Position numbers and translations under genes: made by a program. This document shows, one piece after another, positions 8,701 to 62,642 of a stretch of DNA of 64,000 nt. This stretch comes from Pocillopora damicornis (Eukaryota), in contig NW_020845410.1 of the NCBI RefSeq assembly GCF_003704095.1, positions 620,001 to 684,000 of the forward strand. Direction: 5' to 3'. The number at the start of each line of letters is the position of its first letter. Position 1 is the first letter of the stretch. The notes beneath the pieces were generated by a model, which was given only the letters and a program-made list of their open reading frames with translations, made no database searches and had not been told where the DNA came from.

Positions 8701-11700
8701 AGAAGGCTGGTGGTGGATATTTACCGGGCCGCTACTGAGCCACAGACACAGAGGTAAATAGTTGCTTTAGTATATTCAGGAGATTATGGGCAATTTATAA
8801 TCTATCGGTATAGACTAAATCAGTGAGGTAATATCAGATGGCACAAGAAGATGGGCCTCGTTGGCTATCTATCATCTCACATCCAACGTGCAATCGTGGA
8901 ATGATTGCTAAATGTATTTACAATAGTAATGAAGTTAACCAAGGTAGATTGAAGAAATATAGAATCAGAAAAAGTCAACGTTCGCTATCCAGAATTAGAA
9001 GTCGCTTAGAGAAAGCGTTACCAGCTGTATCCTGAGCTATAGTAAAACTTAAGTTTATTTTGATTTCAGTAACGCCCCTCATCTCAATTAATACCCATCA
9101 AGACTTTAGAACACTCAAAAGGTTATAGTAATCATTCATCAACCGCAGAGGCATTAAATATTGCTCTTCTTTAAACTTACCCCTTTCATCAATTCCATAA
9201 ATAGATGGAGATGATTGTCTTTCTCTACGCTTTTATAATAGGCCACAACTCGGTAGTGTCTGATTTCTTTCAAAATATTGATTTCATTTGTGAGTTGCTC
9301 CACCTCCTGGAATTTCGAAGAAGTAAATTTTTCAAGATAAATGAATTCTTCGTGAATCCGAAGAGAAGGCTCATTTCTAATTAATAGACAAATTTTTTGA
9401 TGTAGCAGTAACCGTATAGCTAAAAATCGGACGTTTTCTTAAATGAAAACATTTACATCAAAGGGTACAAGACTAACCTTTTGCGATTGAGTATACTGAG
9501 GCTCTATCTTGACTATTTTCACAGCACACAGGCCTTTATAGTCTCCCGTTGGAAAAGTACACTCATATACCTGAAAAAATTTCCCAGATTAAATCGTTTA
9601 TCAGTTGCCGTTTTTAGAAATAAAATCGACTATCTTAGAAGGAATGGAGTGTGCCTACGGCGGAGTTACCCTGTAAGAAAGCAAGTCTGTTCTCTGTTGG
9701 AATTGTTGCAACGTGGTACGTGACTTCCTCACTTAATTCTGTAGAAATAATATTGTGAGACTTCTTCCAACTTTATTACCGATGACTAGGAATAGCTCTA
9801 AATTTGCGTCGAATCCTTCAAATTTTGTTTTATGTTAAATTCCATCAAATAATATAGATTTAGCCAAGCCTAAAAGCGGAGCTCCTGTAAGTTTATTTTC
9901 CAGCCCTTCATTATGATAAGAACTGTTATAAAAGTCTTCAGCACTGGTTGCAGGAGAGTTTCTTCAAGGAGATTCAGGACCAGTCTGGGGAGGGGGGGAA
10001 GGATTTGACAAGGTCACGCCACCTGCCAAATTGTACTATGTCCGACCATTTCCCGAGGCGGATAAATAACAACAGAGGAACCCAACAAAGGTTTGTAAAC
10101 ATACCGAGCGCCGTAATTTACGTTATTATAACGTGAGCAGAGACGAAAATTCTCACAAAGAAAACGCAATCGACAGTCCGAGTTTTGAAGGTTTTCGCTC
10201 AGTTAGATTGCAGGCTTACGTACGGTAGTAAGAATTCAACACAGCTAACACTCGTGAATAAAGTATAGTTTCTTGTTCAAAAACAGAACAAAACAGGAAT
10301 GATGGAAGATATGGCCAACTGGCACAACTGTTAGAATTCATACTAATCATGAATCATGCCGAGGTCCAACGCGGCTAGCTCAACATTATGATATCCGGTC
10401 ATCGCAGTGAAGAAGCCTTAGAAATAACATCGGCCGCCCTTCGAGAGAACAACTAAGAGCTTGCCCTAACATACTTTCCGATGCGTTGGGTGGACCTCAA
10501 CGCATCGGAAAGGATGACGCATCAGTCACAGCAGGCGAGTTTTACGTTTTTATAAAGATTCTTTATTATTAAAAAATAGGGAAGCCTTGACTGCGCCCTG
10601 TACTGTTGCAAAGCACTTAGGAAGCGGCAGGAGTACTCAAGAAGTGGGAATATATAAGAGATGTGGACGCATGTTTCACCCTACTCTTCTTTCGTGCTCT
10701 AACCGCTTTCTGCGTGCTTTACAACAGAATAGAGCACAGTCAAGGCTTCTCCATTTTTGAATTGTTGATCGCGCGTGATTGGTCTAAACGCATCACGTGA
10801 CCGAATATGCCCCCCCNNNNNNNNNNNNNNNNNNNNNNNNNNNNNNNNNNNNNNNNNNNNNNNNNNNNNNNNNNNNNNNNNNNNNNNNNNNNNNNNNNNN
10901 NNNNNNNNNNNNNNNNGTTTCTTAAACAACGCTTTTCATTAACGTTAGCCTTGAAGGGTGAAGGTCACTCTTTGAGACTGCGAACTAAGTTCTTCCATTT
11001 TGACGCTTAAAAGCGTGAAATCACTATTCTTCGACCTCGACTAATCGACAAGAGGCAGAGAGCGACGTCGTAAAAGCCAACAGATCACAAAGTGTTTTGG
11101 TCCCGGGCTGTTGAGAATGATGCGAGGTTTAAACAACTTAATATATAGACAATCAACACTTGATGACACTAAAGAAAGCAAAGTCTCTTTGATAAAACAA
11201 ACTTATTCACAATTCTTCTTTTAATATCTTGGACTCAGAGTACCCAGTGACGGATGATAAACTGAGTTCCCTTTCTTCTAGTGTAGAATTAAAATATTTC
11301 TCCCTCGCCTCTTCAAAAGACTATGTGCCAACACCACTTGCAAGGTAAAGGAAGGGTAAGGAATAGCAAAGTTTACACAAGTTCGATTGCACGTTATAAG
11401 CCCATGGCCACGACATGTTCTCAATCGTGGGTTATAGGCATAACAGTTCTTTTGACATGTAGGTCAAAACAATAAAGCGCACATATCCAGATGGACATAC
11501 TGATGGACTAAACGGCTAAGGAGAAGAAAATAGACACTTGATAACGCTAACCTTCAGAGAAATTAGCTTCCAGTGACCGTAACGAAGTCCACTGAAAGAA
11601 AACGTTTGCATAAGAATACCAAATTTCACTTTGAAGCTGAACGGTTGACAGTGCCAGCATTATACTTAGAATATGATCTTCATTCTGAGAAATGTTAATG

Positions 11701-34456: not shown

Positions 34457-35656
34457 TTTGAATTTAGTACAGATTCCCCAGCATTCTCTTTGTTCCTTGT
34501 TTCGGCGGAAGACTGGATATGATATTACTGAACTAGTACCCAGGTGGTGCTCTGTAACTGGCGAGACTGAAGATTTTGTTTGCGTAACTTTCGAGTCATT
34601 AATTCAGTTAGGGTTCGTAAATTTTCGTCGGCTCCGTGGTGAAAAGTTCTCAGCTGACTTTTTGAAACCCGCTATAGCCACGATTATTTGTTTGTTTTCT
34701 TCGGGAACTGATTAGAGTCAGACAGAATTCTACTTTATTTTTTTCAGGGAGGGGAGGGCGGAAGGTGCTTGTGGAAGCGAGATGGGGATATAGCAAAGTA
34801 ATTCGTCTCTGTTTGTTGCAATTAACCTTTTATAACGGTTTAATAGCACTGGCGCACCAAATATGCTTAACCAGTTTGGGAATTGCAAGGATTTTCCTTT
34901 TGGAAAATGATCAACACAAGAACTTGATTGACAGGTGGTCAGTTTATTCATACTGCAGACAAAAACTGCATGGTCAACCTACTGCATACAAAATCTCACC
35001 TCAATGAATACATCTTAAAAAGAAAAGACTCCAAGTTTTACTGGCAAACCAGAAAAGTACAAAACATACAAGATATTTTAGAAAAGAAGAAAAGTGAAAA
35101 TGTTAGAGAAAAATATTTTCCAGTCTGCCCTTTAGAAAAGTTAAGGAAATTCCACGCACAAATTGCATTCAAGTACTTGACCTGTTCACCTTGTCTCATA
35201 AGATAAATCTTTGAGCAGGTCCTTTAAAACTTTCCCTTTCAGAAAAATGCACACAATGTATCACTGGAATGCATCAACACCACCATCTTTTAAAGCCCCA
35301 CACAAAATATATTATTCTTGTTCTAAAAATTAAGTTTAATGAACAAAATGTTTAGGCTGCTGTTATGATAAAAGCTTTAGAAGCCCTTGTACACTGAAGA
35401 TTTCATTCAAAATAAATACAATGGAAACGTAGTTTACCTTAAGCAGAATGTGATGATAGAATGTAGACAATCAATTGGAGTATTGAAAATTTGGGTTAAA
35501 AAATTGTACTACAAACAGGTTTTACAAATAAAAAAGTACTTTGGCAAGTTCTTTTTCTACACAAAAAGATATAGCTCATAATTTTATTTTGTTCTTCAAA
35601 CTGAAGGACTGACTAAAAAGCTCAAAATCAGTTGTTACAATTGAAAAGTTGTAGCA

Positions 35657-38600
35657 CTACTGAATTACACAACCTTTGCTAGTTTCACCCTAAAGAAGAA
35701 GAAAAAAAAACTATTAGTCACTTTAATAATGATAATAATGCATCTATATAAAGCATTATCCATTGTACTATACTCTAATGTTTTTTAAAACACTCTGTGG
35801 GGGATTTTGGCCAGGCTCTTTTGAGCAGTTTCTTATTTTATAAAAGGAAATTTAACATGTGCCCCCAGTTTAGGAATTTTTCAGAAAAAAGGCCAGATAA
35901 TAGGGCACCACATTCTCCTTCGCTATTTTAAGACCCTGATTGTTGGTCTGGACTAGCTCTGCATAGAACTCTGGAGATGAGGCTCACAGTGATCCTCTAA
36001 TGCTTGACCAACAGACTCCACTGAAAAGGGGGAACTGCTTGAAGTCTAACATGAAGCTAAAGCAACTATCAATTGGGTGCAACAAGAGCAGCCATGTCTT
36101 ACCTCACGTTGTCCAGACATCATACTTTGTCGCCGACTGTCAATTTCATCAGTCCTAATGCTGACTTCTTCAACAATTGCAGAAGCTGCTTCCTACAAGA
36201 AATATATGGAGTTATCAATAAGAAAACTGGGCTTCAACAAAATAGCACCATTTCCTCTCCTCAAAAAAAAAGAAAAATAATAATGAAATGTAGATTGTGT
36301 ATCAAATTTTCTCAAACAGGCTTTTGCAGCACGAAGATTCAGGGGTCAAAGTCCACCCAACAAATAGAATACTGGGTTGTGGCGAGACAAGACCAATCAA
36401 TTAATCCAAGCTAAGCTTGCCTTCCACATTTTCAAGCATTTCTCGTGACTCATATATGATATGCCTCAAATTGTTATTGACTCCAAAATTCGCTGTATTT
36501 TTGGACTTAAAACGTGTTTAGGATCATATAGTGCGACAACCTGGCAAGCCCATCTAAGTTAAAGGGGATCTGCTTTGGAATCCCTTGTCAGGGATTACAG
36601 CCTATGTCCCAATAATACTTTTAATCATTGTTTCTTGAAGTATTTTAGTATTATTCTTTTTGACTTTTACGGATTACACCCTACACCATTCACCCCTGAC
36701 TGTGCCATGCCAACTACCAACATTATTAACCCTTACAGAACCTGACAACATCAGAAATGGTAAGAGTAATAATACCTTGCTCCAAGAGGAAAGCCTCTGA
36801 GTTTAAAAATTTACATACCTTTAATTTTCATTTAAATTTGTAGCAGGGAACTGTATACAATTGAAAACTATGATATATTTACAAATTTACAAAAATAAAA
36901 AGAACAAGGTTGATGGATTTAGGTGGCCACATCTCCTGAGAAATTATTTTATTGATCATAAACCTGATGGATTCCTTTCTTGAAAACAAAAATGATTTTA
37001 CTGGTCTAGCTGACCAATTCTGTCTAATGCAAGGTGCCCTAGGTCTTTCAATATCTGTATATGAACTGCACAAAATATAAACTGCTTAACAATGGTTGTC
37101 AATGATATCAATAAACTGTTGTTATAAAGTTCTTTTATCTAATCAGTTGGCTCTGTAATGAAAATGAGCGCAGTCCAAATATCTAAAGGGAATTCCAACT
37201 TGACTGGAAAGTAACTGAAGTTAAAAAATTTCCTCTTCTACATCCTCATCAGCAAATTGACAAACACAGACACAAACCTGGCCATCTGCATCTTTCAACA
37301 CTGTTTTTGTTTCTTTACCAACACCCCAGCTGGCTTTCTGTCTAAATACCAGTTCTGAAGGTGGTTTATGCTGGCCGCCACCTTGGGATGCCCAAATCTA
37401 AAATGAACAAGTTATTTCTTGATTAAAATGATATCAGAAAGTTTCGATGGAAGCATGAATGGCACAGTGCAGAGAGAGTGCCTTCTGGCAATGTAGCCCA
37501 GGTAAAAGTTACCGACATTTACCTCCCCCTAGTCCTTGGGTTTTCCGTCCACAGAAAGAAGACTAACACACTAAATTCATTAACCTACAGACTATGGTAT
37601 AAGTAAATTTTTCAGCTTTCACTTCCACCCCGACTACTGCCATAGACAAGACATATTTCAAGTGAATTCCAAAAGAAAAAAGAAGCATTTTAGATTGTTT
37701 TCTTTCCCTTTTGAACACAAACATAAACTAAATTAAAATAAATTTTCTGTTAGAAATAAAGCATGGGTATTCTTTTTCTCCCTGGTATCCCCTATCTTCC
37801 ATTGATCTTAGATAGTAAACAAAATGTAAAATCACTTACTGTTACATAAAATCCACTTTTCAAGACATATTTCGGTGTGAACTTGTAGATTACAGGTGGT
37901 TCCCCATCTACTGATTTTTCCAAACTCCAGCCACCAAGAGGCATATCCTAGGAAGAGAAAAGATTTAGCAAGTAATTAACTATAATCAAAATCTTCCAAA
38001 AAAAATTAATCCAAAAAGACGGTAATCTGCACTTTCATAACCCTTGACACAGATAAGGAACCCAAAATTGAATGCAAGAATGGGAGAAAAAAAAGGTAGG
38101 GATTTAACAACCAAAGGCTAAAAACTTTCTTCCACTAAAAATTTTACATTCTGGAGTAACTCCCACTCTGCGAAGTTTAACTAAAATTAACATTTTCCAA
38201 TTCTTAAAACAAAATAAACAATCATGAAAACTCATCAGCTTATCATGAATAAATTGAAAGACTCACATTGGCTCCACTGTTGAACAGCTTGACAAAGGTA
38301 CCATCTGCACTTGCCTCTTTTATCTGAATGTAACCTTTGTTTGAATACTTAGTTTCTACAGTCTCTTCCTCTGTGCGGATTCGCTTAGCAGAACGTCTGC
38401 CACTTTTTGCAGAAGCTCCAAATACTGGGGAAGCTGGGGGAGTTATGTTCAACCTGAAGGATAACTGTGCCTGTTAGAAACTTAACATTTATTTTCTTAC
38501 TGCTCTCTCTTATGGACTAATAACACTTGGCAACAACCCCAGGGTTGTGGCTAAGGAAACAATAAACGAGAAATGAGCCTGCTCAAAGAGAAATCTTGTC

Positions 38601-41600
38601 ACAAAATATTGGTCCCAGTCTCTTCCATTACCCTTCACAATTAGGCTACCAAGCTTCATATTTTACAATATGGCCAATGCAGGACATTGAATGAGAACAA
38701 TGCAAACAACTGATCATAACTGGATTTTACTCAATATGTCTTATTTGTTTAAGTGGCAATGGTACTCAAGATGGCAAGGAGTTTACTTAATCCTTTTCAC
38801 TGAGATTTTTTTTGATACGAACAGTTGTGTATGTATGACCTAAAAAATATTCACATCCCTTTACTAAGTAATCACCAGCCAAAATCCAAGTGGCAAATTT
38901 TGTTGACAGCCAGTGCCTAAGGAAAATACTGTAACCCTGATCCATTTATTACTATTTTAAAACTAACAGAACACAGTTTCAATGCACCTTGATTCCTCTC
39001 CTTCTAACATCTTTCTGTAAGTCAAAATCTCCAGATCAAGAGCAGTCTTCACTCCCATAAGATCCTCATATTCCCTGAGTTGAGCATCAATTCTCTTGCG
39101 TAGTTCTTTGATTTGTGCATCTCTGTTTGCTATTGCCTCATCAGCTATCTTTTGGTCACTAGCACGCAAACTTTCTAAGTCTTCAATTCTTTGTAACAAG
39201 CTTGAATTCTGTGGGTTTGAAAAAGGTTAGCAACTATTACTTCAAGTTTAAGACTTCTGCTCTCTCTAATAGAGTCTGATTCACCTTTCAAAAACACAAA
39301 AAAGTTTCAACATCAGCCCATGTAAATAAAATAGCCATCATTAATGTTCTACATATATATACCTTGGACTGCAACTGGTTTAGTTCTGATTTGATATTTT
39401 CAACAGTGATTGACAAAGTTCTTTTTTCTTCTCTGATCAGTGTCAACTCCTCCAAATCCTTTGTGTTCATCCTCTGGAGTTCATCATACTTGAAAAGAAA
39501 AAAAAAATATTTATTACCAGGGTGTTAACTCTTTAACTCCCAGATCAATTTTGTAATTCTCCTTACTGTCAATCATACAATTCTTATAATGTTAGTTCAG
39601 AGAATTTTGTATTGGATCAACTAATTATTCCCAAATTGATATTTTTCTTTATTCTCATCACTAATCTAGTTGATGTTGTATTGACATTGTAAGGAGAAAT
39701 TCTGTCTTGGTCACTCATGGGAGTTTAAGGGTTAATAAGCTTGAAGTAGATGGCAGATCAGAAAAAGCAGGTGGTTGGGTTATCATGGACACCATGTTGT
39801 ATCATCAGATTACAAATAAGGATGGGAACTATTCAGTTAAAAAATCCAAGGCACTAACCCAAACTTCAAATATAGAAACATCTAAACCTATTACTGATAA
39901 ATAATGCATCCAATTCCACTTAAAAATAGGAGATGTCTGCTATGCAAATTCTCTGTGATGGTATTTTGAACAACAATTGTACTGGTTTTTTTTAATATTC
40001 TATTTGTATATAAGGATGTACAGTAAACTGGGTGGAAATAGCCAGCTAATGATGGCAGACTAGCTGATAACTTTGGTGGCATGTGGGCTCTTAATGTCAG
40101 CTCTGACTACATACTTAACTATCATGAAATACTGGGAAGTTTCCTGTTCACAACTTTTAATCTCAAGATCTTATTAGTAATTCTCCTTACTGTCTGCTAC
40201 ACAATTCTTAATGTGTTCCTTTGGACAATTTGTATTGGATCAATTCAATAATCCCCCAATTGATATTTTCTTTTCTGTTACACACTCATTGGAGTTAGAG
40301 GGGTCTGAAGCACACTTACCATTTACATTATCACTATGTAAAGAAACAATGTTGTCGTTGTAAGCAGGCACATGTATTTCCACATCAACTCTTTAACTTT
40401 CAGATCAAATTTGTAATTCTCCTTACTGTCTACTGTACAATTCTTACAATGTTAGCACAGAGAATTTAGTATTGGATCAACATATTATCCCCAAATTGAA
40501 ATTTTTCTTTATTTGCATCACTTATCTGGTTGATGTTGTATTGATATTGTAAGGAGAAATTCTGTTTTGGTCACTCATGGGAGTTAAAGGGTTAAGGTGC
40601 ATTGAACAATTTGTATTGGACATTTTAAATTTACCAACATAACTGAGGTTGAATTCAACCTCGCTTCATGCCTTCTATTTGAAAAGATGGGGCTTAATGT
40701 TCATCAATAGAGATCTCTACCTTAGCACCATAAAGACCATCAGTTTCATCTTTATATTGCCTGGCCTCGCTATCAAACATCTCTCTCAGTTCATGTAGCT
40801 TTTCTGACAAGATTCCTTCATATCTGTTCTTCGCTTCAGCTTCTATTTTGCTGCGCTGTGACTCTACACTTTGTAACTGAGAACGGATCTCAATCATTTC
40901 CTGAAGAAACAAAGAAATGATTCCCGGTTAATTCTATATTCCTTTTAGAGAAAAAAAATAGACTTTTTGGACATCTTTTCAATATAATGCTGCCCTCCAT
41001 TTTTTTCATTCTACCACTATAAGTTTTGGTTCTAACAAACATTAAAAATATTGATCGACAAAGTTTAAATTCATGATAAAAAATTCACTGTGGAACAAAG
41101 TCAAGTTTACCTGTACTTTAATTCCTTATCATCTGATATCAGAGATAAATTTATAAACGTGCAATTGAAAGTACAAATTTCACAAATGTGATCCTGATTT
41201 TGTTATATTTTCCACCATTGCCTCTGTTGGAATTTTGTTATTTCACAACTATAAAACTGGAGAGTTTTCCTTCAAACAAAAATCTAAGAAGTTTTTGCTT
41301 CTAAAAGTCACTGCTTATTCCCTGTGCAGAAATGTTGATTTGGATTTTAAAAGCAATGATAATTTTGGCTCAAAAGTCAAATAAAAGTCAAACTTTTACC
41401 TTACTGTACATCTCTTTCTTGAAATTGAGTTCTTCTTCTTTGGACTGGAGTTTGTTCTCGAGGTCCACTCTTGATAGGGTCTCCTGCTCAAGGGCATATT
41501 TAGCTGATTCCAAAGCATCCTTCAGTTCTTGGCACTCTTTCCTTAGGTCCTGGATAACTGCTTCTAACTTCTTTGCCTCTTGATTTACATTTGCTAGCTG

Positions 41601-43034
41601 TGCATCTCGATCACACAACTTTCTCTGAGATGCTTTCAAGGCATCTTCACTGTTCTTGTGTGCTGCAGCTGCTTTCTCAAACCTTTGATGTCATAAACAA
41701 ATAGTCAGTGGAGAGTGTGACATTGAACACAAAAGACAGCTATAAACATCAGCATGCTATTGATAAACACAAACCCTTCACATGCTTTCAAAAAAACCCA
41801 TCTCATTGAAATTTATTGACAATTTTGAATATTTTCGAGGAATTTGCATAATCTTTACCATAATATGCTGCACCTTCCGTTTAGCAAATACTCTAAATAT
41901 TCAAGGAATATAAAACGGTAAAATGTGAGCCATTCAACGTAAGTTTATTCACTTTTTGTAGGAACTGGATGGGACCAAAGCCTAGAAATAAGTTCAAATC
42001 AACAAAGGGTCTGACAATGAGAAAATTAGCATGCTGAACAAAGGAGGTTTCACAAAGTTCAATTTAAAAAAAGTTTGCTCCATGTTTTACATCAAAATAT
42101 TTAAAGGAACTTACGCGTGACCAGTCAGCGTAGCTAGTGTCTCTAGTAGGATAACTTTACAAAATGCTCTCGCCTCAAAATGACCGCTCGGTAACTGATC
42201 TACGTGGTTTACAATGATAACAATAATTTTTTTACCCGACGCTAGCCTAGGAAACACCCATTACAATGCTGTCTAGGGAGTAACGTAGATGTCTCTCCCG
42301 AATAATCACGAATATTGATGCAAACGTTCGTTTGAGTTCGTATAATGTAATTGATGAAATCGACATGCGGGTAACGGAATCAACAAGTTTCCATTTCACC
42401 TCAGTCTCGGTTGTTTGAACAGAACGAGTGAAGAAGATGACCGAGCCAGCCGAATAAATTAAGACTACGATCATGCTCATGACATTAGCTTCCACGTGCA
42501 GGCAATAACGTCCGAGAGCGCGACCGTCATCAATTTATACTCCTAACGCAACTTTGGAAAACCACTTATCAACCAACCGAAAAGAACTCTTCAAGCGAAA
42601 ATTCAGTTATTTTAGAAGGAAACAATTGCTTTTGAAAACAGACAGCCTGCCCATTGGTTTATGAAAAAAAGGTTAACTTACTTCTTCTTGAATTCCTCAA
42701 CCAGTGCGGAGTTCTTCTTGTTCTCGATCTGCTCGCGTGCCTTGTCCTTTGCGACCTCGTCCAACAACCTCCTCACATCCCTCAGCTCTGCTTCAAGCGA
42801 GTTCCTCACGGTTTCAATTTCAGTCTGTTTTTTGCTCGTTATCACAGTAATTTCTGCTGTCAACTTGCTGTTCGTTTCTTCCAAGAATTTGACTCTGTCA
42901 ATGTAAACGGCGAGACGATCGTTCAAGTGTTGAAGTTCTTCCTTTTCTTGAATCCGGGTCATCTTCGTCGGGGAGGCCACCTCGACCCTCGCTGAAGACG
43001 CCGGAGTGCGAGGTGATATTACAGTTGTAGCCAT
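35657..43034 (-). CDS. LMN: Nuclear lamin (B-type, CaaX = CVIQ)
   Basis: Head with a CDK site (ASPTKMTR), coil 1[13 protein letters not shown], coil 2 end [28 protein letters not shown], Ig-fold LTD (LGGWSL...YKFTPKY...IWASQGG...PPSELV), last exon 35657-35689 [10 protein letters not shown]. Exon 1 42682-43034 (phase 2) joins exon 2 starting at 41682. Confidence 0.95.
39525..39735. mobile_element. ~210-bp TTAA-flanked MITE (piggyBac-like ends); related copies at 40385-40595, ~49810-50020, ~54897-55110, partial ~40150-40300 and ~32420-32590
   Basis: The ends are ttaactctttaactccc ... gggagtttaagggttaa. The copy at 40385-40595 has a near-identical body. A second subfamily (aaccctttaacccctaagagtgac...aaagggttaa) lies in CDK7 and DNAAF4 introns. 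Confidence 0.7.
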
Positions 43035-44056
43035 TTTGGAAAGTAAGCTAAACTCAAAGCAAAGTAAAACAAAATTCGCTCAGAAGTTAAGACTTCTAGA
43101 ACCGCGCAGAAATCTGCTCAAGTTTTGGCGGTTCTCTACTGACATGTGACTAGATTTGACCAATAAGAGAGTGCGTTCTTTGAAAAATTCTTTCAAAGCA
43201 AATAAATGATTGGTTAAAATTGAGGCGTGACTTTTACAGTAACGGTCACGGTATGAAACGTATAACTCCCGTATAGTCTGATCCCGCTCGTAAAATGCAT
43301 TGGAGAACGTGAAGTAGAATTAAATACTTTCACAAACGCACACATAAATATCTTCCGTATCAGGTGATAACTTAAATTTGATATATTATCCCTTTCAGTT
43401 TCGACTCGAACACCGCTGGTCGAATGGTAACTCAAGAAGAATCAGCCTTTCGAACAACTATTTCACATTTCGCACTTTCAAAAACACAAATATCGCTTAA
43501 GAAAAATATGGCAACCGATCCTTTATTCACTTTGAATTCTTCCTCCGCGAAAGCGTCTTCAGGATGATGGAAATGATGCACAGGCTACCCAGGCGGGGAT
43601 AAAGTCGCGCCCAAATGTTATTGGAAATATTGACAAGAAATGTTACCATGAAAAAAAGAAAAAAGAAAACAAAACAAAACATGTTTACGACTTCTGTTTT
43701 AGCTCATGGTATTCTCGAAGAAGTAAAGTTCACTCGAATATCATGACCTCCTCTATGGAAGGATCGTTGAAATGGTTGGCACCATTGTTACCCTGGGAAA
43801 AAGCAAATCAAGGAAACTCCGTCTTCCCTATGATTACCCCAAAAACAAACATTCCCAATTCCAATTCGACCTGGAAACAGTGGACAAGAAGAGAATCTCC
43901 GTGACNNNNNNNNNNNNNNNNNNNNNNNNNNNNNNNNNNNNNNNNNNNNNNNNNNNNNNNNNNNNNNNNNNNNNNNNNNNNNNNNNNNNNNNNNNNNNNN
44001 NNNNNNNNNNNNNNNNNNNNNNNNNNNNNNNNNNNNNNNNNNNNNNNNNNNNNNNN

Positions 44057-44448
44057 TTCGACTCTTGCTATTTTCACACTTTCTCGCACCTCTTCTACTT
44101 CGCTGTAAGGAGACCAAAACGACTGCTGAGTACGATAAAATAATTCGAGTAAGGGGGCTAAAATTTCATAGAGGGAGGGTAAGAGCTCGAGTTTTAAAGA
44201 ACTTTGTAAGCTAACCTCTCCCTCTGTTACCTTAGTCCAATTACTCACCATGCCTCATTTTTGAGCTTTTTATTTTCCTCTTCCAGATTCCTGACTTTTT
44301 CTATGTAAGCCGCAAAACGGTCGTTTAAATTTCTCAGATCGTCTTTCTCTTTAGCAAGAGACATCTTCCTTTTGTTGCGCGTAAGTAGATCTCCGGTCGA
44401 AGAAGTTCGAGTTGAGTGCCAAGACGGCGATTTTACAACAGAAACCAT
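44057..44448 (-). CDS. Extra intermediate-filament head + coil 1A exons upstream of lamin (44249-44448; 44102 into gap): alternative lamin 5' end or truncated paralog
   Basis: MVSVVKSPSW...KEKDDLRNLNDRFAAYIEKVRNLEEENKKLKNEA ends at a GTGAGT donor in phase 2. The next acceptor ccttacag|C continues EVEEVRESVKIARVE into the N gap. Confidence 0.75.
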
Positions 44449-45244
44449 GTCAGAAAGTACACTAAACATTAATGAAAACTGCAAAGAGACAACAACTGTG
44501 CAGAGGGTTTCAGCGTTTTAAGAAATCAATGGAATCTTGGCCTGAGTAACAAATCCTTTTCTTGTCACCTTTTCTCTATTCGCTGTCACTTTTGAAAGCT
44601 GCTCTTACCAGTCACTCACCTGAAATACAGTTCTCTGTTAAAATTAAATTCACTTCATAAATAGCGCGACGTACGTAATTGTGTGCGTCATCAGTTGCTC
44701 GAGCAATTGGAACATGGTACATGTCGAAGAACGAGAGTTACTGTGGTCAGTAAAAGAAAATTGACATTTTATTTTCTTGTTTTCTCGAATTATTTTTCAA
44801 TTGTTGGATTTTATGATTCTCCTACTCAGTAACCTAACCTTCATGTCCGATCCTAATCTCGTACCCCGACCTCACACTGCCAAGAAATTTCATTTACTAT
44901 TAGACGTTAGGATCTGGGTTCGAGATTAATTTGGTTCTTGTTACGCAAGTTACGCGTCAGTGTGGGAAAAGCTGTCCTGCTCTCACTCATCCTCCATACT
45001 ATATCAATTGCAATTGCTTCCCAGAGCTCAACAGAACGTTGCACGGATTTCCTCTCTTCCTCCCAATTGCCCACCATGAAAGAGAAGAAAAAGGCCTGGT
45101 TACATCTCACCCCTATTCATGTAGAAACACGGCCTTTTCTGGAGACGGGATCGGGATCATTGAGTGAAAACTTTCCAACGCAAAATATTCCAACGCGTAA
45201 TAGGTTTGGGATTGGACAATATGACAGGTGTTTATGAAAGGGGT

Positions 45245-47758: not shown

Positions 47759-51848
<4,090 letters not shown>

Positions 51849-52877
51849 TTTGATTCTTCTTTTCCTTCATTTGGGACTGGGTACTAAAATCTGGATAACT
51901 ACGTCTTGTACTACAGCATGTATTTTTCCATAAACCTCGCCGCAAAATTACCATTCTGACCACACTTTTAGTCCCTCCTTTTCGGCGGATTCCTTGTGCA
52001 AGTCAAAAAGCGGAAAAAAAAAAAAAAAAAGATGTTTGATGTTAGCGCGCCGCGCAGAACCCTGGGCACATCAATTTTTTTCCACTAATTTTTTGTGACT
52101 CGCGCGACGGACTTCGCCCGAAAGGAGGGACTGCTCGTAGTCTAACTTGAAAAGTACCTCAGGTATTTAAGGCAAACGTCTAATGAGTAGAAACTCAACA
52201 CTGGAGATGTTACACGGTTGTTAGCCACAAAAATGAGAGTTTGAACCTTTTCTTCAAGCTTACTCCGGAAAGAGTCACAGTTTCGGCAAGAAAGGCTCGG
52301 TAACTGGACGCACTTTAGTGAAAATGAGCATAAAACTGTTTGGCACGCGTAAACTATTTTGCGGTTGGAAGAGTTTCTGTATATAAAAAAAGTTGTTTTC
52401 ACGTCTTGTCCTCTTTATTAAGAGTAAAAATACTGTCACAGTTTTCAGAGTTTGAATGGACAGTTTTCTTTTTTAAAATTGACATTCTATTGAGGGGAAG
52501 AAAGCTCACTGGTACAGTAAAGAGAATCACATATTTTTATTTCTTTGATTTCTCGAGTCTTGATCTCGGGATAAAGCGAACGGTGAGGTGATCTGTCGGT
52601 GGAATTTTCACCTTTTCCTAAACATCAATGGTTGCTGAGATACTTTAAATTCAAATTTTTCATTGATTTTTTCAACATTGCGTATGCTTCAGCTAAGTCA
52701 TAGAGCAGTTTAACCCTGTACAAATAATTTAACGTACAAATCGCTGTCCATTGTTGAATTTCAGGTCTAAGGTTCATTCGCTCATCAAAGTGGTCTATTC
52801 CTCAGACCGAAAGCATCAGACTCTTACAGAAAGTGCGACTTTTTCATCATCATTCGATGACATAATTTATTCTGAAG

Positions 52878-55800
52878 CTATGTGGAGCCTTGAATGATCT
52901 TTCTTATTCTCTCTGAGTCGTTCTTCAGGTCTACGTTTTTAGGGTCAAGCTTGAGGGCTGATTCATAGTCTTGAAGAGCTGAAAGAAAATAAATTAAGAA
53001 AACAAAGATAATGAAACCAAGGTCGATACTAATGTTTGGGGCCTTCCTACTGCAAAATTCTTCTAATCTCTGTTCTGATGTTGTTTCACGTTCAATGAAA
53101 AAACAAAACAAAACAAAACAAAAGAGAAAAAAGCTGATAACCCATTTAAAAGATATGACAGAGTTGCTACTGCGAAAGCTGGTGCTCTTTTAGGGTCTGT
53201 CAACTCCTTAATTTTTTTCTTTAAGGGCGGCTGTACACTGTTATTCTGTGACCGAATCATCTGCTTAGTGGCAGTCTATGCAATGATTTATAACACGACC
53301 TCGCACTTTAACCAAACGATTTCTTCAAAAAGCTGTCGTTACACACAAAAAAAAGGCGTGTATCATACACAAAAACTATAACGTCAGAAATTCCAAACAC
53401 TGGCGAATAATGGAGCCCTTTCTTGTTTAATCATTCAAGTGTAAATTACGGTCAGAAATCTCCAAGTTTACTATAATTTCCGAGGTTATATGAAAACCGC
53501 AATGAAAACCCGTTTACTCACCCAGCACGTATTCTTGTAATTGCATGTACGCGGTCCCTCGTCTGACATGCGCTTTACATCTGGAAGCACAATTGGCCGG
53601 AACCGGAGGAACAAGGAGTTCTAGTGACTGTAGAACGAACGTCATCAGAAGTAAACTCAAATGAAATAAAACTCACTTTGTACTAAAAAATAGAAGCTGA
53701 AAATTTGACGAGAATCTTACACTTGTACAGTCTTGAATGCACTCTTTGTACTGTTTCAATTGAAGATGACATGCAGCACGGTTAGAGTATAACCTTCACA
53801 AAGTCAAGGAGAGAATCTCATTTTCATCCGAGTATTTTGCTACACCCCGTATTTGTCTAAGTTGTCGCATCCACGTTACAAAAACACCCGTGATTATATT
53901 TCTTTTAATTAAAAGGCGTTCTTATTTGTGTAACAAGTAGTTCAACAACTGACGAAAAAGACGTGATAAAAAAAATATACAAACAAAAACAAAAACAAGG
54001 CGAATCTTTTTTCTTCCTCAGCCACCGTTTCCCTTCTCCCCCTATGTCCAACGTTTTCTCATTAAGATGATACGGTGCTCTTTTTGAATTTGTTACGATC
54101 TTAATATTTTGGTTAACTTGTCTTATTATTATCTTTGAACTTTTTCTAAGACCAGAGTAAGTTTATCTTTGGGTGATTTGCGAAAATAGTGAGTTCATAG
54201 TCTTTATATCTAAGTAGTTCTTCCAGAAAGTGTTTCAATCTCTCTCGCAAAGCTTTCCTCCTTACAACTAATTGCTATCAAATATAAGATGGGGAAGTAT
54301 TCTAAGAACTGTTTTTTGAGCTCCTCTTTTGAACTGAGCTAAGGAGAGAAAGGTAACAGACGGTTTGGGACTGGGAAAGAGTGTGATAGCAAACTAGTTT
54401 TCTTCAGTTAAAGGATACGATGGTATTGAGTCATCCAGTACGATGGCTGCTGTGAATGCATTGATAGCCGCTACAAAGTTTCCAGCCTTGTAAAACCCAC
54501 TGCCAACGGAACGTCAAAAACATAAAATTAAGAGAAATTTCACTATAAATTTGATTCACTGAACGGAGTTAGTACTTTTAAAGTACTTTTTAAGTTCGAT
54601 AAAATTCGACTTAATGAATATTAAAAGTAAAAGGAAAAAAATTCAGATAAGTAATATTCAGCAGTTTTGATCATTTGCACTGGTTTCAGGGTGTTTGCTT
54701 AATTTCAACTTTGAGCTTGTGTGGTTTGTTGTGATACTTATGGATTTGGTTTCAAAACATTCTACTGTGATATGCTCTGATCATACCTCCCTCCTGTGAT
54801 GAAGTTTGTTCTTTTCTTCCTTTCTTTTCTTTGCTCATTTGTCCATTTTTGTTGTATGTTTTATACCAGTTAAGATATCATTTACCCTGTCTTCATTGTA
54901 ACCCTTTTAGCCCTAGAAGTGACTGTCTTTTAATTTTCTCCCTAACAGAATCATGGCTGAATCAAACAACAAAGTCATGAGAATTAAGAGAATGATCACT
55001 GATTAAAGAAGCTCTAGATTTTTCTACAAATTCTCATTCACAATCCATAGGAAATATCTAGAGGACAGTCTGGAGAATATGTAACTATACTGATGTTGGG
55101 ATGTAAAGGGAGCAAACTCACATTCCTTTGTCTTTTAACCACACTGGGTTCATTTCTTCCATATCAACAGCATCAGTGTTGGTAGTATCTGTTTTTCGGC
55201 TTGCACCAGCCATCTTTTTCAGCCACTATGAACAAAAACAAATCTTCATGTTTAACCACTGAACAGAAAGGATTGGATCCTCACAAATTCTAATGGTGTC
55301 AAATGTCTGATCCCTAAGTTAAGGGTCAACTCTTTAATTGGAAATATTTCATTAATTTTCATCTCACACCCTATACTATGAAATGTGAGATGCTTAGACC
55401 AATGCAAGACCTGAGAGGCAGGGGAGGAGGGGGTGTGGGGTTGTGGTGGTGGATGGTCTGTTTCAGAGTTACAGAGCTGTACACTGTAGAATAGCTTCTT
55501 AATGAACATTACATGATTATCATAAGAAACTGGAGTAGAAGCAATCACACACAAACAAAAATAAAAACTGGAGGAAGATTGTGACTTACAGATTAAACTG
55601 ACAATAAAGATGAGTTACCTCTTCTTCTTCTGGTGCTTTGGATTCTCTTGCAGCTGTTTTGAAAACACGAGGAGTGAATGACACTGAAATGGAGCCAGAT
55701 ACCCTTGGCTCTGGAACTGCCTTTTCAAGGAAGTCTTTCTTTTTTTCTAAAGATGGAGACTACATTGTCAGAACAACAAACTGGAGCAAGGTAACTAAAG

Positions 55801-56962
55801 AGTATCATTCAAATAAATGCATGTGCATGGTTAGTAAACAACAGATATCAAAGAAAAGGAAACAAGAGATTATGAGAAGGTTTAAAAAGCTACCTTCATT
55901 TTCTACCAATCCCCTTAATTTTGTAGCGGGTAACACCATAAAAATTGACAGTCGTACCATTTGTCCTTTCTTTGTTGTAAGGAGCCATTTTCTTTGTAGC
56001 TGGTTTTAGAAGTGGCTCTTGATACTCTCCCACCTCTAGGTCAGCTTTTGTTGCAGACATGTTGGTGTCTTCATATTGATTTACATTACTGTTCGAAGTG
56101 ACTTTTTCTTCTTCTATGCTTGTAGGCTGCAATTTTTGATTTTCTTTCCATCTTTCAATGGCCTTAGTTGCCTTTTTACGTTCTTCCTCCTTTATGGCAT
56201 CTATTCTAGCTCTTTCTTCCTGTTCCAGCTGACATTTACACAAACACAAGAAGTTTTAGTCTTTTGTTAATAAAGAACTCTGTCTTGATTAATTTTGGTC
56301 TGAAATTATACTTGTGATCTTACATTGGACTTGCACAGGGCATTTGGAAATCACGCACGTCATTTCAGACCAAACTGCTCTAAAATCAGTTCAAAGGAAA
56401 ACTAGTGCTATGCATGATCGCTATCTCTACAGAATTTCAATACACCAAACCTTCATCTGTTCTTGAAGTGCCAATTTTTCTTGTTCTCGTTTCTCAGCTG
56501 CTTTTCTTTGCTTTTCTTTTTCAGCTCTCTCGTGCGCCTTACCAACAGCTTCCTCTCGTTTCTTTCTCATGAATTCTTTGTCCTCTGATTCTGATGCATG
56601 TAACTGATTCCATTTGGATGAGCTCTTCTTTAATAATTGAAACTTGACAACTCCACTGCCAAATGTTGCCTTACTCTTAGTATCTTCGACTTCACCGAAC
56701 AGGAAGACTTCAAAGATATACGGAGGATAGCTAGCCTATGGGCGATACTCTATTAATATTTTCTCTTCAATTAAATGTGACATTGGGAACTCTTCCCATT
56801 TCAATCTATCTTGACAGACTGCACACATTCACAACTAACCTTGATATAATCATCAATTGAAAAAATATCCACTCGATTTGACGGCACTCCTTTCAAAGGA
56901 ACAGTAATCAAAACCGTTTCATCTGTTTCCTCCCAAACGTAGTCCTTCACCTGTATCGGCAT
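52878..56962 (-). CDS. DNAAF4: Dynein axonemal assembly factor 4 (DYX1C1): CS/p23 domain + coiled coil + TPRs
   Basis: [13 protein letters not shown]...VPLKGV; [12 protein letters not shown]; [16 protein letters not shown]; TPR motifs [30 protein letters not shown]; the C-terminus is [15 protein letters not shown]...[10 protein letters not shown]. Confidence 0.93.
53794..54418 (-). other. U12-type (minor spliceosome) GT-AG intron in DNAAF4
   Basis: The 5' splice site is |GTATCCTTT. A branch site TCCTTGAC is followed by tttgtgaag| with no polypyrimidine tract. The join TC|G gives [11 protein letters not shown] in frame. Confidence 0.85.
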
Positions 56963-57106
56963 TTTTGCTTACTACTTCTCCTAAATCATTGCAAAATTAT
57001 CATCTCGTAGTCGTCCATCTTTGTGTCTCAAATACAAAATCTTGCAGGCGCGTTTCTAAGCAGTTCCCAGATCTCTTACAACTCTTATTTCGCGCCAACT
57101 TCAAAG

Positions 57107-59078
57107 ATGGCGGACAAAAGCGCTCGACGGAAAGTCGGTGTCGGTGTTGGCGTGTTTATAATCTCATCTGATCACCCTAACTGTGTCATAGTTGGACAGA
57201 GAAAAGGCTCATCAGGAAGTGGGAAGTATGGGTTACCTGGGGGACATTTGGAATTTGGGTGAGAAATATTACTTAGTGTTATAAATTACCGGTAATTGCA
57301 AAATGAACGATTATGTAAGTTATTATCAACCATCCTGCCTATGCTATGAAATGAGCTGATTCCGTTTTAGTGGGAGATGTAGTTAAAAATGCGTCAAGCA
57401 TTGGTTCGAAATGGACCTCTCTCTTGAGAATTTAGTTTTACAGCGCATGCCAGTTGGTGAGGTAGAGAGCCCTAAAAGAACTTCAGACGGGGGTACGGTG
57501 GGAAGCGGGAAGGGTGGGGAGGGGCGTGGGAATAATTAGTAGACTAATAATTTCGCCTCAAATTTATGCTCCAAGCAAAATGAATTGGAGAGTCAATGCA
57601 TTGGTTTATCCTCAAGTTCTTGCTGTACATGATTTACTTGCTTTCTATACTTTTAGTATGTTAATCTTCCTTACTCTTTCACTCATCCACCATAGCTTTT
57701 GGAATAGTCCATCCCATAAAGATATATTATAAAGAAGCTTTGCTTGGATTTTTCCTTGACCCAGAGATAGTTTAACATGGATACAATCAAGATTTTCATT
57801 AAGAGATATATTTACATGAGAATATAGCAAAGTAACACTCTGCAAAACATCTAAAATATCTGCTTTTCAAGGAATTTCGAGTAGTTAACAGTTTAACATG
57901 GATACAATCAAGATTTTCATTAAGAGATATATTTACATGAGAATAGAGCAAAGTAACACTCCACAAAACATCTAAAATATCTGCTTTTCAAGGCATTTTC
58001 ATAAATTCTGGCAGCAAGGAGAACTTTGACTCAGTTTCCAACATTAACCTGTGTAAGGATTCTTTAATTTATCACTCAGCCAGCAATCAGCTGTGAGCCA
58101 GCTGTGATCATATCAAGTTTTCTGAATTTATTAACAGTGAAGAATGGTCTGAATGTGCAGCAAGAGAAACATTAGAGGAAACTGGACTGAAGATTAAGAA
58201 TGTTTCATTTGGAACTGTAGTTAATGCAGTTGTTCCTGAAGAGGATTACCATTACATAACAATTTTCATGAAAGGAGAAATTGATAACAGCCAGGCAAAA
58301 GAACCAGAGAACCTGGAACCAGACAAGTGTGAAGGTGAGGGGAGAAAGAAAACATCTACTCTTCAGCTAGAAAGCAAACCCTGCCAGAAATTATATCAGT
58401 TTATGTAACACAAAGCTTGGACTTATGTCTCTCTTTTTGCGATGAACAGAATGTCATTCCTTCTGAAGGTTACCCCCAATTTTTGTCCAGTTTCTGCATC
58501 AGTTTGCAGGAGGTCTTACCCAAACCACAGTTTTACGTAATCAGCGGGCCTCAGGCTTTCTTTATAAGTTAAATTCCACTGTTAGCTTTTAGCCCTCTTG
58601 AGGCTGTTCACATAAATAGATGGTTAGATAAAAGGTTCAGCTAAATTGAGGGATTGTTTAGGACACAGCTTTGTTAAACAACAGTTAAGCTTTGTTTAAA
58701 TAATCAGACCTAAGTGTCTTAACCAAGAACACAATGCAGCAACCCAGCCACTTCTTGAACCCAGGCCACTTAATCCACCACTAACCCTCTGCATTTCCCA
58801 TTTTCAAAACTCATTATTGTTATCCTTGCATAAGCAATCAGTCACTTAGTATCTACACAGTACAATAAACAAAGTAAGAGTCTGTAGAAGTGATATAAGT
58901 TGTTAATTATCTATTTGCTTGGTTTTTGTCTTTAGGTTGGGGTTGGTATGACTGGGACTCATTCCCTTCTCCACTCTTTGAACCTCTCAGAATAGCAAGA
59001 CTACAGGGATACCAACCATTTGACAATGAAAAGCATGGTCACATTGACTCTGCACTGTTTAGCATTTGTTCTAATTAG
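57107..59078 (+). CDS. NUDT15: Nudix hydrolase NUDT15 (MTH2)-like, 3 exons (57107-57258, 58138-58334, 58936-59078)
   Basis: VGVGVGV...[46 protein letters not shown] (Nudix box), [32 protein letters not shown]. Confidence 0.9.
57770..57995. repeat. Two near-identical ~105-bp direct repeats (121-bp period) in NUDT15 intron 1
   Basis: gtttaacatggatacaatcaagattttcattaagagatatatttacatgagaata occurs at 57771 and 57892. Confidence 0.9.
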
Positions 59079-59649
59079 AACCATACACAGTGTTCATGAT
59101 ACAAGAGACATCAAACACTGTGTCTTAGTTAATATCATCAAATGCAGAGATGAAATTTCAAAATTAAAAACAACTTAAGTATAAAGATTACATTCTTAAA
59201 AAGAAAAAAGAAAATGACAAAACTATTGCAAGGAATAGTCTCCAGGACTTGAGTAATAAATGAATCTAAGCTCAATACAAGTTATTTTTGTAAGAAAATA
59301 CCATCACTTTTTATGATAAAGGCAAATTCGATTTGCACATAAGCACTTTCTCTGTTGACATTTTTGTGGAAAAATTATCTGATTACCCTTACTACCAGTA
59401 GAGTCTTTTACAATCTTGGCTCTTAAGTTCAAAATAATTGAGTTGAAACTTATTGTTGAGTACTACTCCTCAGCACATTTTTCAAACATTCTGTGTTAAT
59501 ATTAGATAACAGGCTTTGGATAATTTAGAAGTTTTTAACATTGCCATAAATAAAGATGATTTCCAAGCTGTAATGGTCTTTATGTAGTAATTATTGTGAG
59601 CTAACTTGTGAAAATGAATGCCTAGCTTTTTATTGGTTAATTTCCTTTA

Positions 59650-61431
59650 TCAACTAAGCTTTCCATCTGCTCCACCATATGTTAGTGAAGTAAAGTCCAC
59701 TTCATGTCCAAGTGCCGCAGAAATCTCTGATGATAAAAGATCATGAAGATAAACACCATCATGTGTATATATCCAGGAACCATCTTTGAAATCGTACCTC
59801 TTGGGACCACTGAAATTTAACAGAATAGACAGAATTTTAACAATTCTGAGTAATCTCCAAAAAGTTTAAAAAAGAAGTGCATGATGAAAAAAGCTGAGAA
59901 AAGTAAGTTTGTACAAGTAGAGTGAAAAGGTAGACCTAGAGTAAATGTCTCTTGTTTACCTTGTTGGAGAGGACAACCATATTTGTTTGTTAGGGCTTTG
60001 TTTGTTGATCACATAGGTACCACGTCCAGCTGAAAGAACACAATTAAATCAAACCTCTTCTTTTTTTAAGCAAACAATTACATGTATAATATGACTCAGT
60101 TGCCTTTACATATGTCTCAAGCTAGTTCTCAGATACCTCTGGGATAATTTCGAGTTTAATGATATCACTTGGAAAAACCTCACTTCAAAGAGAAGGCAGA
60201 GGAGAGACTTGGAGTTCAAGAATTTTTTAAGAATATGCATATTGGGCAAGGATGAGAATTATCTTTAATTTGTGTAATAAAAACAAAATAATTTTACCTC
60301 CCAAGTTGACTGTTAGGACTCCATCCTAATAAGAAAAAAGAACATGGTGAGCCCTGAGATACTAATTGATTGTAAATTGTTTAATTGTTGTTTTTTTTTT
60401 AATGATGACAAAGTGATTGATATGGTTACCTGAAATAGCTAATATGTTGTTCTGGATTCTTGTTTTGAATTTTCCCAAATTCTTGTTTCTGTGTCCAACA
60501 CTTTAACAAGAATTACAAGGTAATAAACAGGTGATAAACAGCTGAAGAGAAAAGCACCCTGCCATTTTTTAAAATTATTTGACACTTCCAAATAGATCAA
60601 TTCTGGTTCAAGTAGTGGATGGAATTTAAAAAAGAAAATATCCCCTAAATATGCTTGGTTCCTTTTACCTTTTCTCTGACGGAGAAAAATGTCATTAAGG
60701 AAAGTGAATGCTAAGTCACTTTGTGAACCACTGGATTGTGCAATACATGAACATTGATCTATAATAACTCAATTGACACTCACACTCATCTGGACATCAT
60801 AGTCAGCAGGGCTTGATGGGCTTTCACCAAGGTCATCAAATAACTCAGCTATGGCATCCAGTGTCTCATCTGCGATACTGTGGTAAGATAACTCATCTAG
60901 GGTGCTGAAAGTATCAAAGTGCAATTTCCAGTTATCTCTGACATAGAAACAGGCACGGAGAATTTCATATTGTAGGAGTAATTAAAAAAACATATTCTAA
61001 TATTTTACATTGGAATGAACAAACCAGGATACAAACCTTTCGGTACTGAACGCTCTTGTCAGGGGAATCCTTCTTTGGTCGAGCTGAAATTGATCAAATG
61101 TGTTGTGAAAAGTTTGAAAGGAGGTCAATTTGATTGCAAAAGAAACAGCTGGAAATAATAAAAGAAGAAGCTAAACCACGGAAGGTTTCACCTGAAGTCT
61201 TTTCGACAGCAGCCCAACATGTGATCTTCTACTTGCAGACAGAATCAAGCTACTTCTACTGGAAACAACAGAGTAGAATGCCACAGTCCTTACACTAAAG
61301 TTTTTAAGGAAACGAATGCGTCGAAATGCAATCATGGCAGAAACTGTTCCCTTGCCATCGAAATGTCGAAATTGGCCAGGCGTTCTTACTAATTGGGAGA
61401 GAGAGCCTGGGTCCAGAGTTCCCGCGGCCAT
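59650..61431 (-). CDS. FXN: Frataxin, mitochondrial
   Basis: Exons read [25 protein letters not shown]...DYDV / DGVLTVNLG / [21 protein letters not shown] / GPKRYDF...[19 protein letters not shown]. There is an Arg/Ser-rich leader. The start (61431 or 61335) and the first intron are unresolved. Confidence 0.92.
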
Positions 61432-61448
61432 TTTGAAAGTGGCAGAGT

Positions 61449-62642
61449 ATGAAAGTCAAAGTGAAGCGTAAGTGGCCTTTTTCGCGAAACTTTAACCTAA
61501 TTTGACTTTGTTTCATGCTCTATTAGATGGAAATAATTTTTAAATCTTACGTATTTGCAATGTGCTTTTTCTTTTCTCTTATGATATGGCATACTTCTTG
61601 ATCCTGCTGTTGCACGAAAAATTCATCAAATGGCTGATTATTTTAATTTTATCCTTTTGTCACCATTCAGAGTGAGTACAAACAACTTGGCTTTTAACAC
61701 TCCTATTATTCGGAACACATAGCTCTTGAGGCCATTTCGATGTTAAGTGGGAATTAGCAACCATAATTACCTATCATCTGTCGAAAAATTTAGGTGAAAT
61801 GATAGGGGAAGAGTTTTTTTTGTATTAAGAAGATGATTATGTGGGACAGGGAAGGCGAGATTTCCCCTCCTTCATGTTTGGCTAAGGTCTACTGTACTTT
61901 ATTGAAAATTATTAAGATTATTCCCCACTTACCAGCTGTAGTGAAAGTTGTGACCAAAGAACCCTTTCTGTCATTGCCACCCACATTACATGTAACAGTG
62001 TCTAGGATGCATCAGTCCCATGTAGACATGTAGGTTTAAATAATTTTCAAGTAAAATGTAGTACAAAATGGTACTGTTAGTAAGTAGTAATATTAGGCCA
62101 AGAAAACTGGAATAACCTCAAGCCTGTGAATGGCTGTAGCTTGTGAAGGGTTGCTTGATCTTAAATTACCCACTCAGACATAAATGTGATCATGTGTTCC
62201 TTAGGTGGACTGGTGTGGCCACATGGCGCTGGGTTGCCAATGATGACAATTGTGGTATTTGTCGCATGGCATTTGATGGTTGTTGTCCAGACTGCAAGAT
62301 ACCAGGGGATGACTGTCCTTTAGGTAAGATCACAATGTTTTGTTCAAGCAAGCTGCATTACTCTGCAAGTGATGGCATTTTCAGCTCTCACTTCAGGTTA
62401 TGACATAATTGTCGAAATCAATACTTGTAATACAAATATGACTATTCAGGTGATACTTTCTCATGACATGTGATCTTGAACCAGGAGATACCTTTATAAG
62501 ACTCAACTATCCGTTTCCTCTTTCAGTTTGGGGTCGTTGTTCTCATGTCTTTCACATGCACTGTATTCTTAAATGGCTAAACTCGCAGCTGCATCAACAG
62601 CTGTGCCCGATGTGCAGGCAGGAGTGGCAATTCAAGGAATAG
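61449..62642 (+). CDS. ANAPC11: Anaphase-promoting complex subunit 11 (RING-H2), exons 61449-61467, 61671 (1 nt), 62205-62323, 62527-62642
   Basis: The spliced product is MKVKVKQWTGVATWRWVANDDNCGICRMAFDGCCPDCKIPGDDCPLVWGRCSHVFHMHCILKWLNSQLHQQLCPMCRQEWQFKE*. Exon lengths sum to 19+1+119+116=255 nt, i.e. 84 aa plus stop. Confidence 0.93.

Follow-up and report, generated by a model that had tools for sequence, protein, structure and literature searches.

An upstream exon encoding a second head and coil 1A is spliced in frame to the lamin gene of stony corals

The 64,000-nucleotide stretch of Pocillopora damicornis DNA analyzed here (hereafter the window) carries a lamin gene that is preceded, on the same strand, by an exon resembling the beginning of lamin itself. 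We sought to understand what this exon, hereafter named U1, contributes to the lamin gene. The initial annotation had proposed an alternative-promoter isoform with a shortened rod, or a truncated duplicate. The transcript started upstream and the truncated duplicate of exon 1 were both retained from this proposal, but the shorter rod was not. We consider it likely that U1 is spliced in frame before the whole lamin, so that the product would bear a tandem pair of head/coil-1A modules and would alter the end-to-end assembly of filaments. The features of the locus are collected in Table 1.

Table 1. Position of the lamin exons and upstream features in the window.
Feature	Position	Strand	Remarks
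U0, end of a small upstream exon	44620..44658	-	donor TTCAG/GTGAGT at 44620, conserved in relatives
U1, duplicated head and coil 1A exon	44249..44461	-	ORF, PF00038 match, RNA contigs in 4/4 runs
Second exon of the initial annotation	44057..44102	-	unsupported as a conserved exon
N stretch	43906..44056	.	simple trinucleotide repeat in genome copy
U1-exon 1 intron, 1201 nt, GT..AG	43048..44248	-	join 44249->43047 in a contig of run X20
Tandem acceptors before lamin start	43035..43052	-	43047 (-13) and 43052 (-18)
Canonical lamin exon 1, coding part	42682..43034	-	head with SPTK CDK-type site, coil 1A, start of coil 1B
Lamin exons 2-10	35657..41682	-	RNA joints; last exon ends in CaaX-type motif
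Lamin exons 2-5	41400-41682, 40721-40900, 39363-39488, 38988-39208	-	
Lamin exons 6-10	38267-38453, 37840-37947, 37278-37397, 36103-36192, 35657-35689	-	

Ten exons make up the lamin gene, whose 566-aa product, as modelled, shows no difference from the Pocillopora damicornis lamin record P0063. The coding sequence starts at the ATG at 43034 and exon 1 ends in phase 2 at 42682. Intron 3 contains a high-copy short repeat element (39525-39735 and 40165-40595) matched by thousands of RNA contigs. Judged by eye from the open reading frames, the neighbouring spans (2026-9438 and 48600-62639) presumably hold an ankyrin-repeat ORF and genes for a MAP3K-type kinase, a CDK7-like kinase, DNAAF4-like and NUDT15-like proteins, frataxin and APC11.

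U1 has its acceptor at 44461, an ATG at 44448, the Met that begins the coil at 44364 and a phase-2 donor, TG/GTGAGT, at 44249. The minus-strand ORF read from the ATG at 44448 encodes a head rich in Ser, Thr and basic residues, followed by coil 1A LNDRFAAYIEKV. In a profile search of the genome, U1 scored above the Pfam PF00038 cut-off (43.1 bits, E 6e-9), and it aligned with the solved coil 1A of lamin A and vimentin; its likeness to coil 1A is therefore not due to chance. The different head and preserved coil 1A described initially were thus borne out by ORF, profile and structure alignment. The same profile search returned the lamin, a gene on C808, U1 and one sub-threshold match on C2371, counts that are lower bounds, while a genome search with U1 found three places: U1 itself, lamin exon 1 and the nematocilin-like gene on C808. 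No rod or tail exon was seen between U1 and lamin exon 1, in agreement with the initial annotation, and U1 has no coil 1B, coil 2 and tail exons of its own, as an independent intermediate-filament gene would.

Two further possibilities raised for the region downstream from U1 did not survive. The N stretch had been taken for an assembly gap that might hide an independent intermediate-filament gene; this was rejected, since the genome copy has letters there, and as these letters are a simple trinucleotide repeat, neither a gene nor a rod exon is concealed. A second exon, thought to begin at 44102 and to continue into this stretch, has an acceptor in phase, but its frame stops within the repeat. 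Its peptide resembles coil 1B only marginally: among 426 background acceptor peptides, 4 score at least as well, about 10 sites were available, and the site at 43415 reaches the same score. In three other coral loci, a search of the introns gave no counterpart (0/3). The bin containing 44102 has contig cover in one of four RNA runs, which proves nothing by itself. Elsewhere in the U1-exon 1 intron, a 477-nt contig of run X15 (43411-43888) may derive from DNA, from pre-mRNA or from the 3' portion of a short transcript.

To locate the splice partner of U1, we aligned the contigs of four RNA runs (X15, X17, X19 and X20), each from a different study, to positions 35500-44800. U1 was covered by contigs in all four runs, and exon 1 was joined to exon 2 in all four. 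The contigs cover U1 together with sequence upstream of it, and one of them joins U1 to the lamin exons, as expected of an alternative first exon or promoter. This X20 contig (record 14, 1907 nt) runs from 44563 to 44249, then from 43047 to 42680, and on through the lamin exons. The join of 44249 to 43047 falls at adjacent record positions (1593/1592); it was read from the positions of the contig pieces, is not among the 15 joints listed, and is displayed in one of the four runs. It is in frame and adds five codons, which gives a protein of 637 aa (from the ATG at 44448) or 644 aa (from an ATG at 44469), that is, 71-78 residues more than lamin, with the two tandem modules 67 residues apart. 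Because the join lands before the normal start codon, the rod stays whole, and since the normal ATG remains in the U1 mRNA, ordinary lamin could be made from the same message.

The other three runs end close to the U1 donor. The X19 contig aligns up to the donor and no further, leaving 13 letters unplaced, and in X15 the contig ends 7 nt past it. In X17, the contig aligns two bases beyond the donor with 27 letters unplaced, and the main lamin contig appears to begin at about 43053. Two tandem acceptors lie here: the one at 43047, preceded by TTTAG and 13 nt before the ATG at 43034, is the in-frame site used in X20, and the one at 43052 is out of frame and would yield a 77-aa product. X15 and X17 carry a changed base (allele) at 43052, and judging from its contig ends, X17 probably uses this out-of-frame acceptor in the variant allele, which speaks against a uniform in-frame join. 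Both acceptor AGs are present in 7 of the 8 other coral loci that contain the lamin start. In other corals, the last ~190 nt of the U1-exon 1 intron are conserved at about 80%, and the normal (proximal) lamin promoter likely lies there. Contig depth for U1 and exon 1 was 12.7 vs 247, 20.7 vs 337 and 4.2 vs 99 in three runs, although contig depth cannot rank gene parts. Neither the acceptor at 43047 nor the conserved U0 exon with its donor at 44620 had been part of the initial annotation.

These contigs bear directly on the splice route suggested at first, in which U1 replaces exon 1 and is joined to exon 2 (41682), producing a lamin of 515 aa that lacks 55 residues of the rod and would thereby resemble mammalian lamins C2 and B3. 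Its arithmetic was right: U1 ends in phase 2 as canonical exon 1 does, the join would be in an open frame, and the count of 27 vs 82 residues from LNDR to the junction is correct. Furthermore, some lamin rod deletions measure a multiple of 11 residues (PMC4448529), which 55 also is, and contigs drop rare forms, so that a germline-only form could be missing from these runs. However, no join of 44249 to 41682 occurs among the joints listed or the contig pieces of the four runs, all of which show exon 1-exon 2, and the sole RNA join of U1 goes to 43047, which keeps the rod whole and lengthens the protein. The 515-aa form was likewise absent from the database proteins inspected, and all four fused proteins described below use the -13 acceptor. 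We therefore regard splicing to exon 2 as very improbable.

Fusion of U1 to complete lamin was also sought among proteins. A pattern match found two coil-1A motifs in 4 of 320 protein sequences: P0064 (P. meandrina gene model, 644 aa), P0004 (Porites lobata gene model, 636 aa), P0073 (Pocillopora cluster, 2579-nt Logan contig) and P0088 (Stylophora cluster, 2800-nt Logan contig). In each, the motifs are 67 residues apart, and a single residue followed by L[LV]SK connects the module to the normal start, as produced by the -13 acceptor. P0004 and P0064 are automated gene models, while the Logan contigs of P0073 and P0088 are intron-free and thus presumably derive from RNA. Taking the RNA contig and the database proteins together, spliced fusions are found in three genera. 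Fused forms are a minority of their clusters (2 among 15 listed of 24 members, and 1 among 15 listed of 21), and none was present among the listed members from Acropora (0/22), Montipora (0/4) or the P0005 cluster (0/8). The anemone lamin records listed (566-580 aa) have one module each. A word-index search of U1 against longer proteins gave no match even though P0004 exists, so that its blank is no evidence. Two vertebrate-type cytoplasmic intermediate-filament proteins, P0117 and P0119, show letter-identical tandem repeats of the head end and coil 1A, and these are probably assembly or gene-model artefacts.

We then examined genomic loci of relatives. A first metagenome scan confirmed 0 of 593 candidates. 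An alignment-based scan yielded 44 loci, of which 9 were of the coral-lamin type; the 35 set aside comprised 31 other intermediate-filament-like loci and 4 without a motif match. Both modules were present in order in 6 of the 44 loci, with ~0.85-0.93 kb between the U1 module and the canonical coil 1A that follows it. All six have a phase-2 donor and an AG at -13, with a predicted in-frame join, so the order, donor phase and acceptor seen in the window are conserved across stony corals. In L013 and L019-L021 the U1 donor is placed 12 nt earlier and the frame is kept.

The start of the long isoform is more variable. The U0 donor (AG/GTGAGT) is conserved in the window, L004, L013 and L006, and transcription would start from a distal promoter via U0, whose splicing was not seen in the RNA contigs of the four runs. 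U0 provides an in-frame start of 10 codons in L004 and L006 and is out of frame in L013 and in the window, where its ATG is followed by a stop. The U0-spliced form matches the N-termini of P0088 and P0198. In L004, the U1 ATG is replaced and U0 supplies the in-frame start. The second in-frame ATG of U1, at 44469, is usable when the U0 intron stays in; it overlaps the U1 acceptor (44449-44480), so Pocillopora is able to start U1 without U0 splicing. Three Pocillopora variants have lost the ATG at 44448 and kept the one at 44469. Two loci point to decay. L006 has a 4-nt frameshift before the U1 donor (L006:1050-1340), and L011 has AC rather than AG at -13 (L011:1950-2000), with no U1 module in its 1996 upstream bases. 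The contig name of L011 shares the L006 prefix, but the contigs do not overlap, which leaves this link unproven. One coral lineage may have lost the isoform, which thus seems dispensable in at least one lineage.

The U1 module is also encountered alone. A HMMER search of 1.84 billion representatives gave 51 matches, including stand-alone U1-type ORFs of several other coral types, and in Acropora cervicornis the module is annotated as a separate 82-aa gene whose accession directly precedes that of lamin, on a contig of the same length. A stand-alone head/coil-1A peptide of 67-82 aa could be the selected product, capping the coil-2 ends of lamin or nematocilin, with the fusion as a by-product. 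Consistent with this, read-through stops one codon past the donor in the window, in L004/L005 and in Porites- and Acropora-type ORFs, and such a peptide would account for selection on the coil without any join. However, the stop is the automatic outcome of a phase-2 GTGA/GTAA donor. A free peptide needs neither a conserved donor phase, nor a -13 acceptor, nor a 12-nt donor shift that respects the frame, and the spliced fusions occur in three genera. We give this explanation only a small chance.

Comparison of U1 with lamin exon 1 gave clues regarding its origin. Both copies have GTTTAG at a distance of exactly 13 nt from the ATG, on its 5' side. Of the 20 bases that precede the ATG, 14 match, a value reached by none of 2142 other ATGs, and the similarity of the copies ends at the end of coil 1A. 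The duplicated unit therefore consisted of acceptor, ATG, head and coil 1A. Upstream modules are 68-78% identical across the Pocillopora, Porites and Acropora types (37 residues) and 49-62% identical to the canonical coral copies. In a tree of 37 columns, which cannot date the duplication, the 10 upstream modules group together, set off by one branch (90/82, not starred). This grouping, together with a mutual identity above that to canonical copies, suggests one duplication before the split of complex corals (which we take to include Porites and Acropora) and robust corals (Pocillopora and Stylophora, on the same assumption); the duplication would thus predate the split of the sampled stony corals. 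An origin of U1 from nematocilin was disfavoured, as its coil is closer to canonical lamins and its 5' DNA is common to lamin exon 1.

Over the 31 codons of the U1 coil, dN/dS ranged from 0.15 to 0.46 in 9 of 10 pairs, with Fisher p<0.05 in 6 of 10, counts being small and pairs not independent; the closest pair (L013/L020) gave 0.79. The canonical coil block has a dN/dS of 0-0.06, and the U1 module evolves faster. Among Pocillopora variants of U1, 13 of 35 head columns differ vs 4 of 38 coil columns (p=0.012). The U1 coil is thus under purifying but relaxed selection, and with an open frame and dN/dS below 0.5 in 9 of 10 pairs it does not behave as a pseudogene, L006 alone being frameshifted, near the end.

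The relaxed constraint could nonetheless reflect a slowly decaying duplicate, with a distal promoter and use of either tandem acceptor, whose role would not go beyond that of an upstream ORF or decay switch tuning lamin output. The presumed out-of-frame join in X17, the L006 frameshift, the acceptor loss in L011, the out-of-frame U0 of the window and L013, the dN/dS of 0.79 in one pair, and the replacement of the U1 ATG in L004 and three Pocillopora variants all fit such decay. However, coil 1A of U1 is still 68-70% identical between Pocillopora and Porites/Acropora, with 11 invariant columns, despite a synonymous divergence of 0.6-1.2 in distant pairs. An upstream ORF would need no LNDR..YI pattern, and L004, having lost the U1 ATG, gains an in-frame start from U0. 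Decay is in our view improbable, and a lamin with two head/coil-1A modules is the reading that we favour.

Within the long isoform, the canonical lamin of 566 aa is preserved in full, with a complete alpha-helical rod, an Ig-like tail (PF00932 on P0002/P0004) and a CVIQ terminus of the CaaX type. The isoform departs from a lamin with one head and one coil 1A by having two such modules. An AlphaFold2 model of P0064 has residues 33-80 as a helix; residues 80-103, which represent the normal, proline-containing head, are a linker of low confidence, and the rod starts at 105, with long helices at 105-301 and 313-467 and a strand-rich part at 497-614. In this model, the layout suggests two separate helices rather than one longer rod. 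Alignment of coil 1A in 16 rows showed 11 invariant columns, including a Tyr invariant in 16/16 and aligned with the lamin A Tyr, which we take to be Y45. A [ST]Px[KR] site near the coil is found in 2 of 10 upstream modules, both Porites-type, vs 11 of 13 canonical heads.

Published work gives these features a context, as far as the available text of each source goes. The N-terminal region of human lamin A binds the coil-2 end, and a change of the coil-1A Tyr impairs head-to-tail joining (PMC7407374), for which overlap estimates range from 1 to 14 nm (PMC7407374). CDK1 phosphorylation of the lamin head abolishes the head-to-tail interaction (PMC9400090), and in C. elegans helix 1A limits lateral bundling and filament thickness (PMC8824219). 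Engineered lamin A fragments 1-70 and 17-70, which bind coil-2 end fragments in solution (PMC7407374), cover the same span as U1; U1 differs in being natural and tethered to a complete lamin, and its likeness to these binding fragments is one of sequence. U1 is accordingly described as a candidate head-to-tail (ACN) docking module and putative binder of the coil-2 end.

The double-headed protein is presumably made, and the conserved Tyr, the published roles of lamin A, CDK1 and helix 1A, and the rarity of the CDK-type site would fit a co-assembling isoform with an extra docking helix. The mechanism that we propose is tentative, and on its own somewhat short of an even chance. The intact rod, tail and CaaX motif would bring the isoform into the lamina; two copies of the extra helix would pair into a further coil-1A dimer, with the normal head as a flexible tether; and this dimer would offer, or compete for, a coil-2 docking site of the next dimer, in most lineages without an adjacent CDK1 switch. 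A bolder version is speculative and rather unlikely: a cell-type-specific coral lamin with two working docking modules per chain, whose outer module, CDK1-free in most lineages, would engage a second coil-2 end and so branch or cross-link filaments, or hold them through CDK1 activity. If true, it would be a natural branching subunit for intermediate filaments.

How does this lamin relate to known ones? In mammals, lamin B3 is missing its head and the beginning of its rod. The same loss is described for lamin C2 (PMC4615672, in the part available). The coral isoform resembles these germline forms in being a second form of one gene made via a different 5' exon. However, C2 and B3 remove sequence, whereas the coral form loses none and gains a coil-1A module; as the join precedes the normal ATG, the analogy drawn initially fails. 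Copepod lamins, one with a PDZ domain (Kollmar 2015), also carry extra sequence before the rod, but they have no tail, and the accessible part of PMC4448529 does not describe duplicates of the rod among their extensions. Nematocilin/cytovec (cilin) is also a lamin-derived duplicate with an LNDRFA-type coil 1A, but is a separate complete gene. The U1 coil is 41% identical to the nematocilin-like copy (L003) and 49-54% identical to canonical coral lamins, and unlike that separate gene, U1 shares 5' DNA with lamin exon 1. The gene on C808 (L003:1468-3008) encodes another intermediate filament; its head is short, its first intron is likewise in phase 2, and it is likely nematocilin/cytovec, as we would label it; the portion seen of the cilin preprint (10.1101/2025.08.21.671432) does not mention corals.

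A doubled head/coil 1A does not appear in the main section of the lamin architecture survey, whose supplementary alignment may bear on this (PMC4448529), and no description of a double-headed coral lamin was found in the literature, subscription journals being mostly outside the search. Compared with the cnidarian B-type lamin (Hydra HyLMN, and those of Nematostella, Exaiptasia and Actinia), the long isoform contains the whole canonical ten-exon lamin, preceded by an additional head and coil 1A. We conclude that the coral double-headed lamin is a real, conserved new lamin variant. Hydra is described with a single lamin protein and cnidarians with one simple lamin (PMC5990382, in the text available), and the second form in corals doubles the assembly end of the rod. 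It was already present, undescribed, in two public gene models. The doubled form has been kept in what we take to be both major stony-coral clades, and it offers a natural test of the debated role of coil 1A and the CDK1 site in head-to-tail and lateral lamin assembly.
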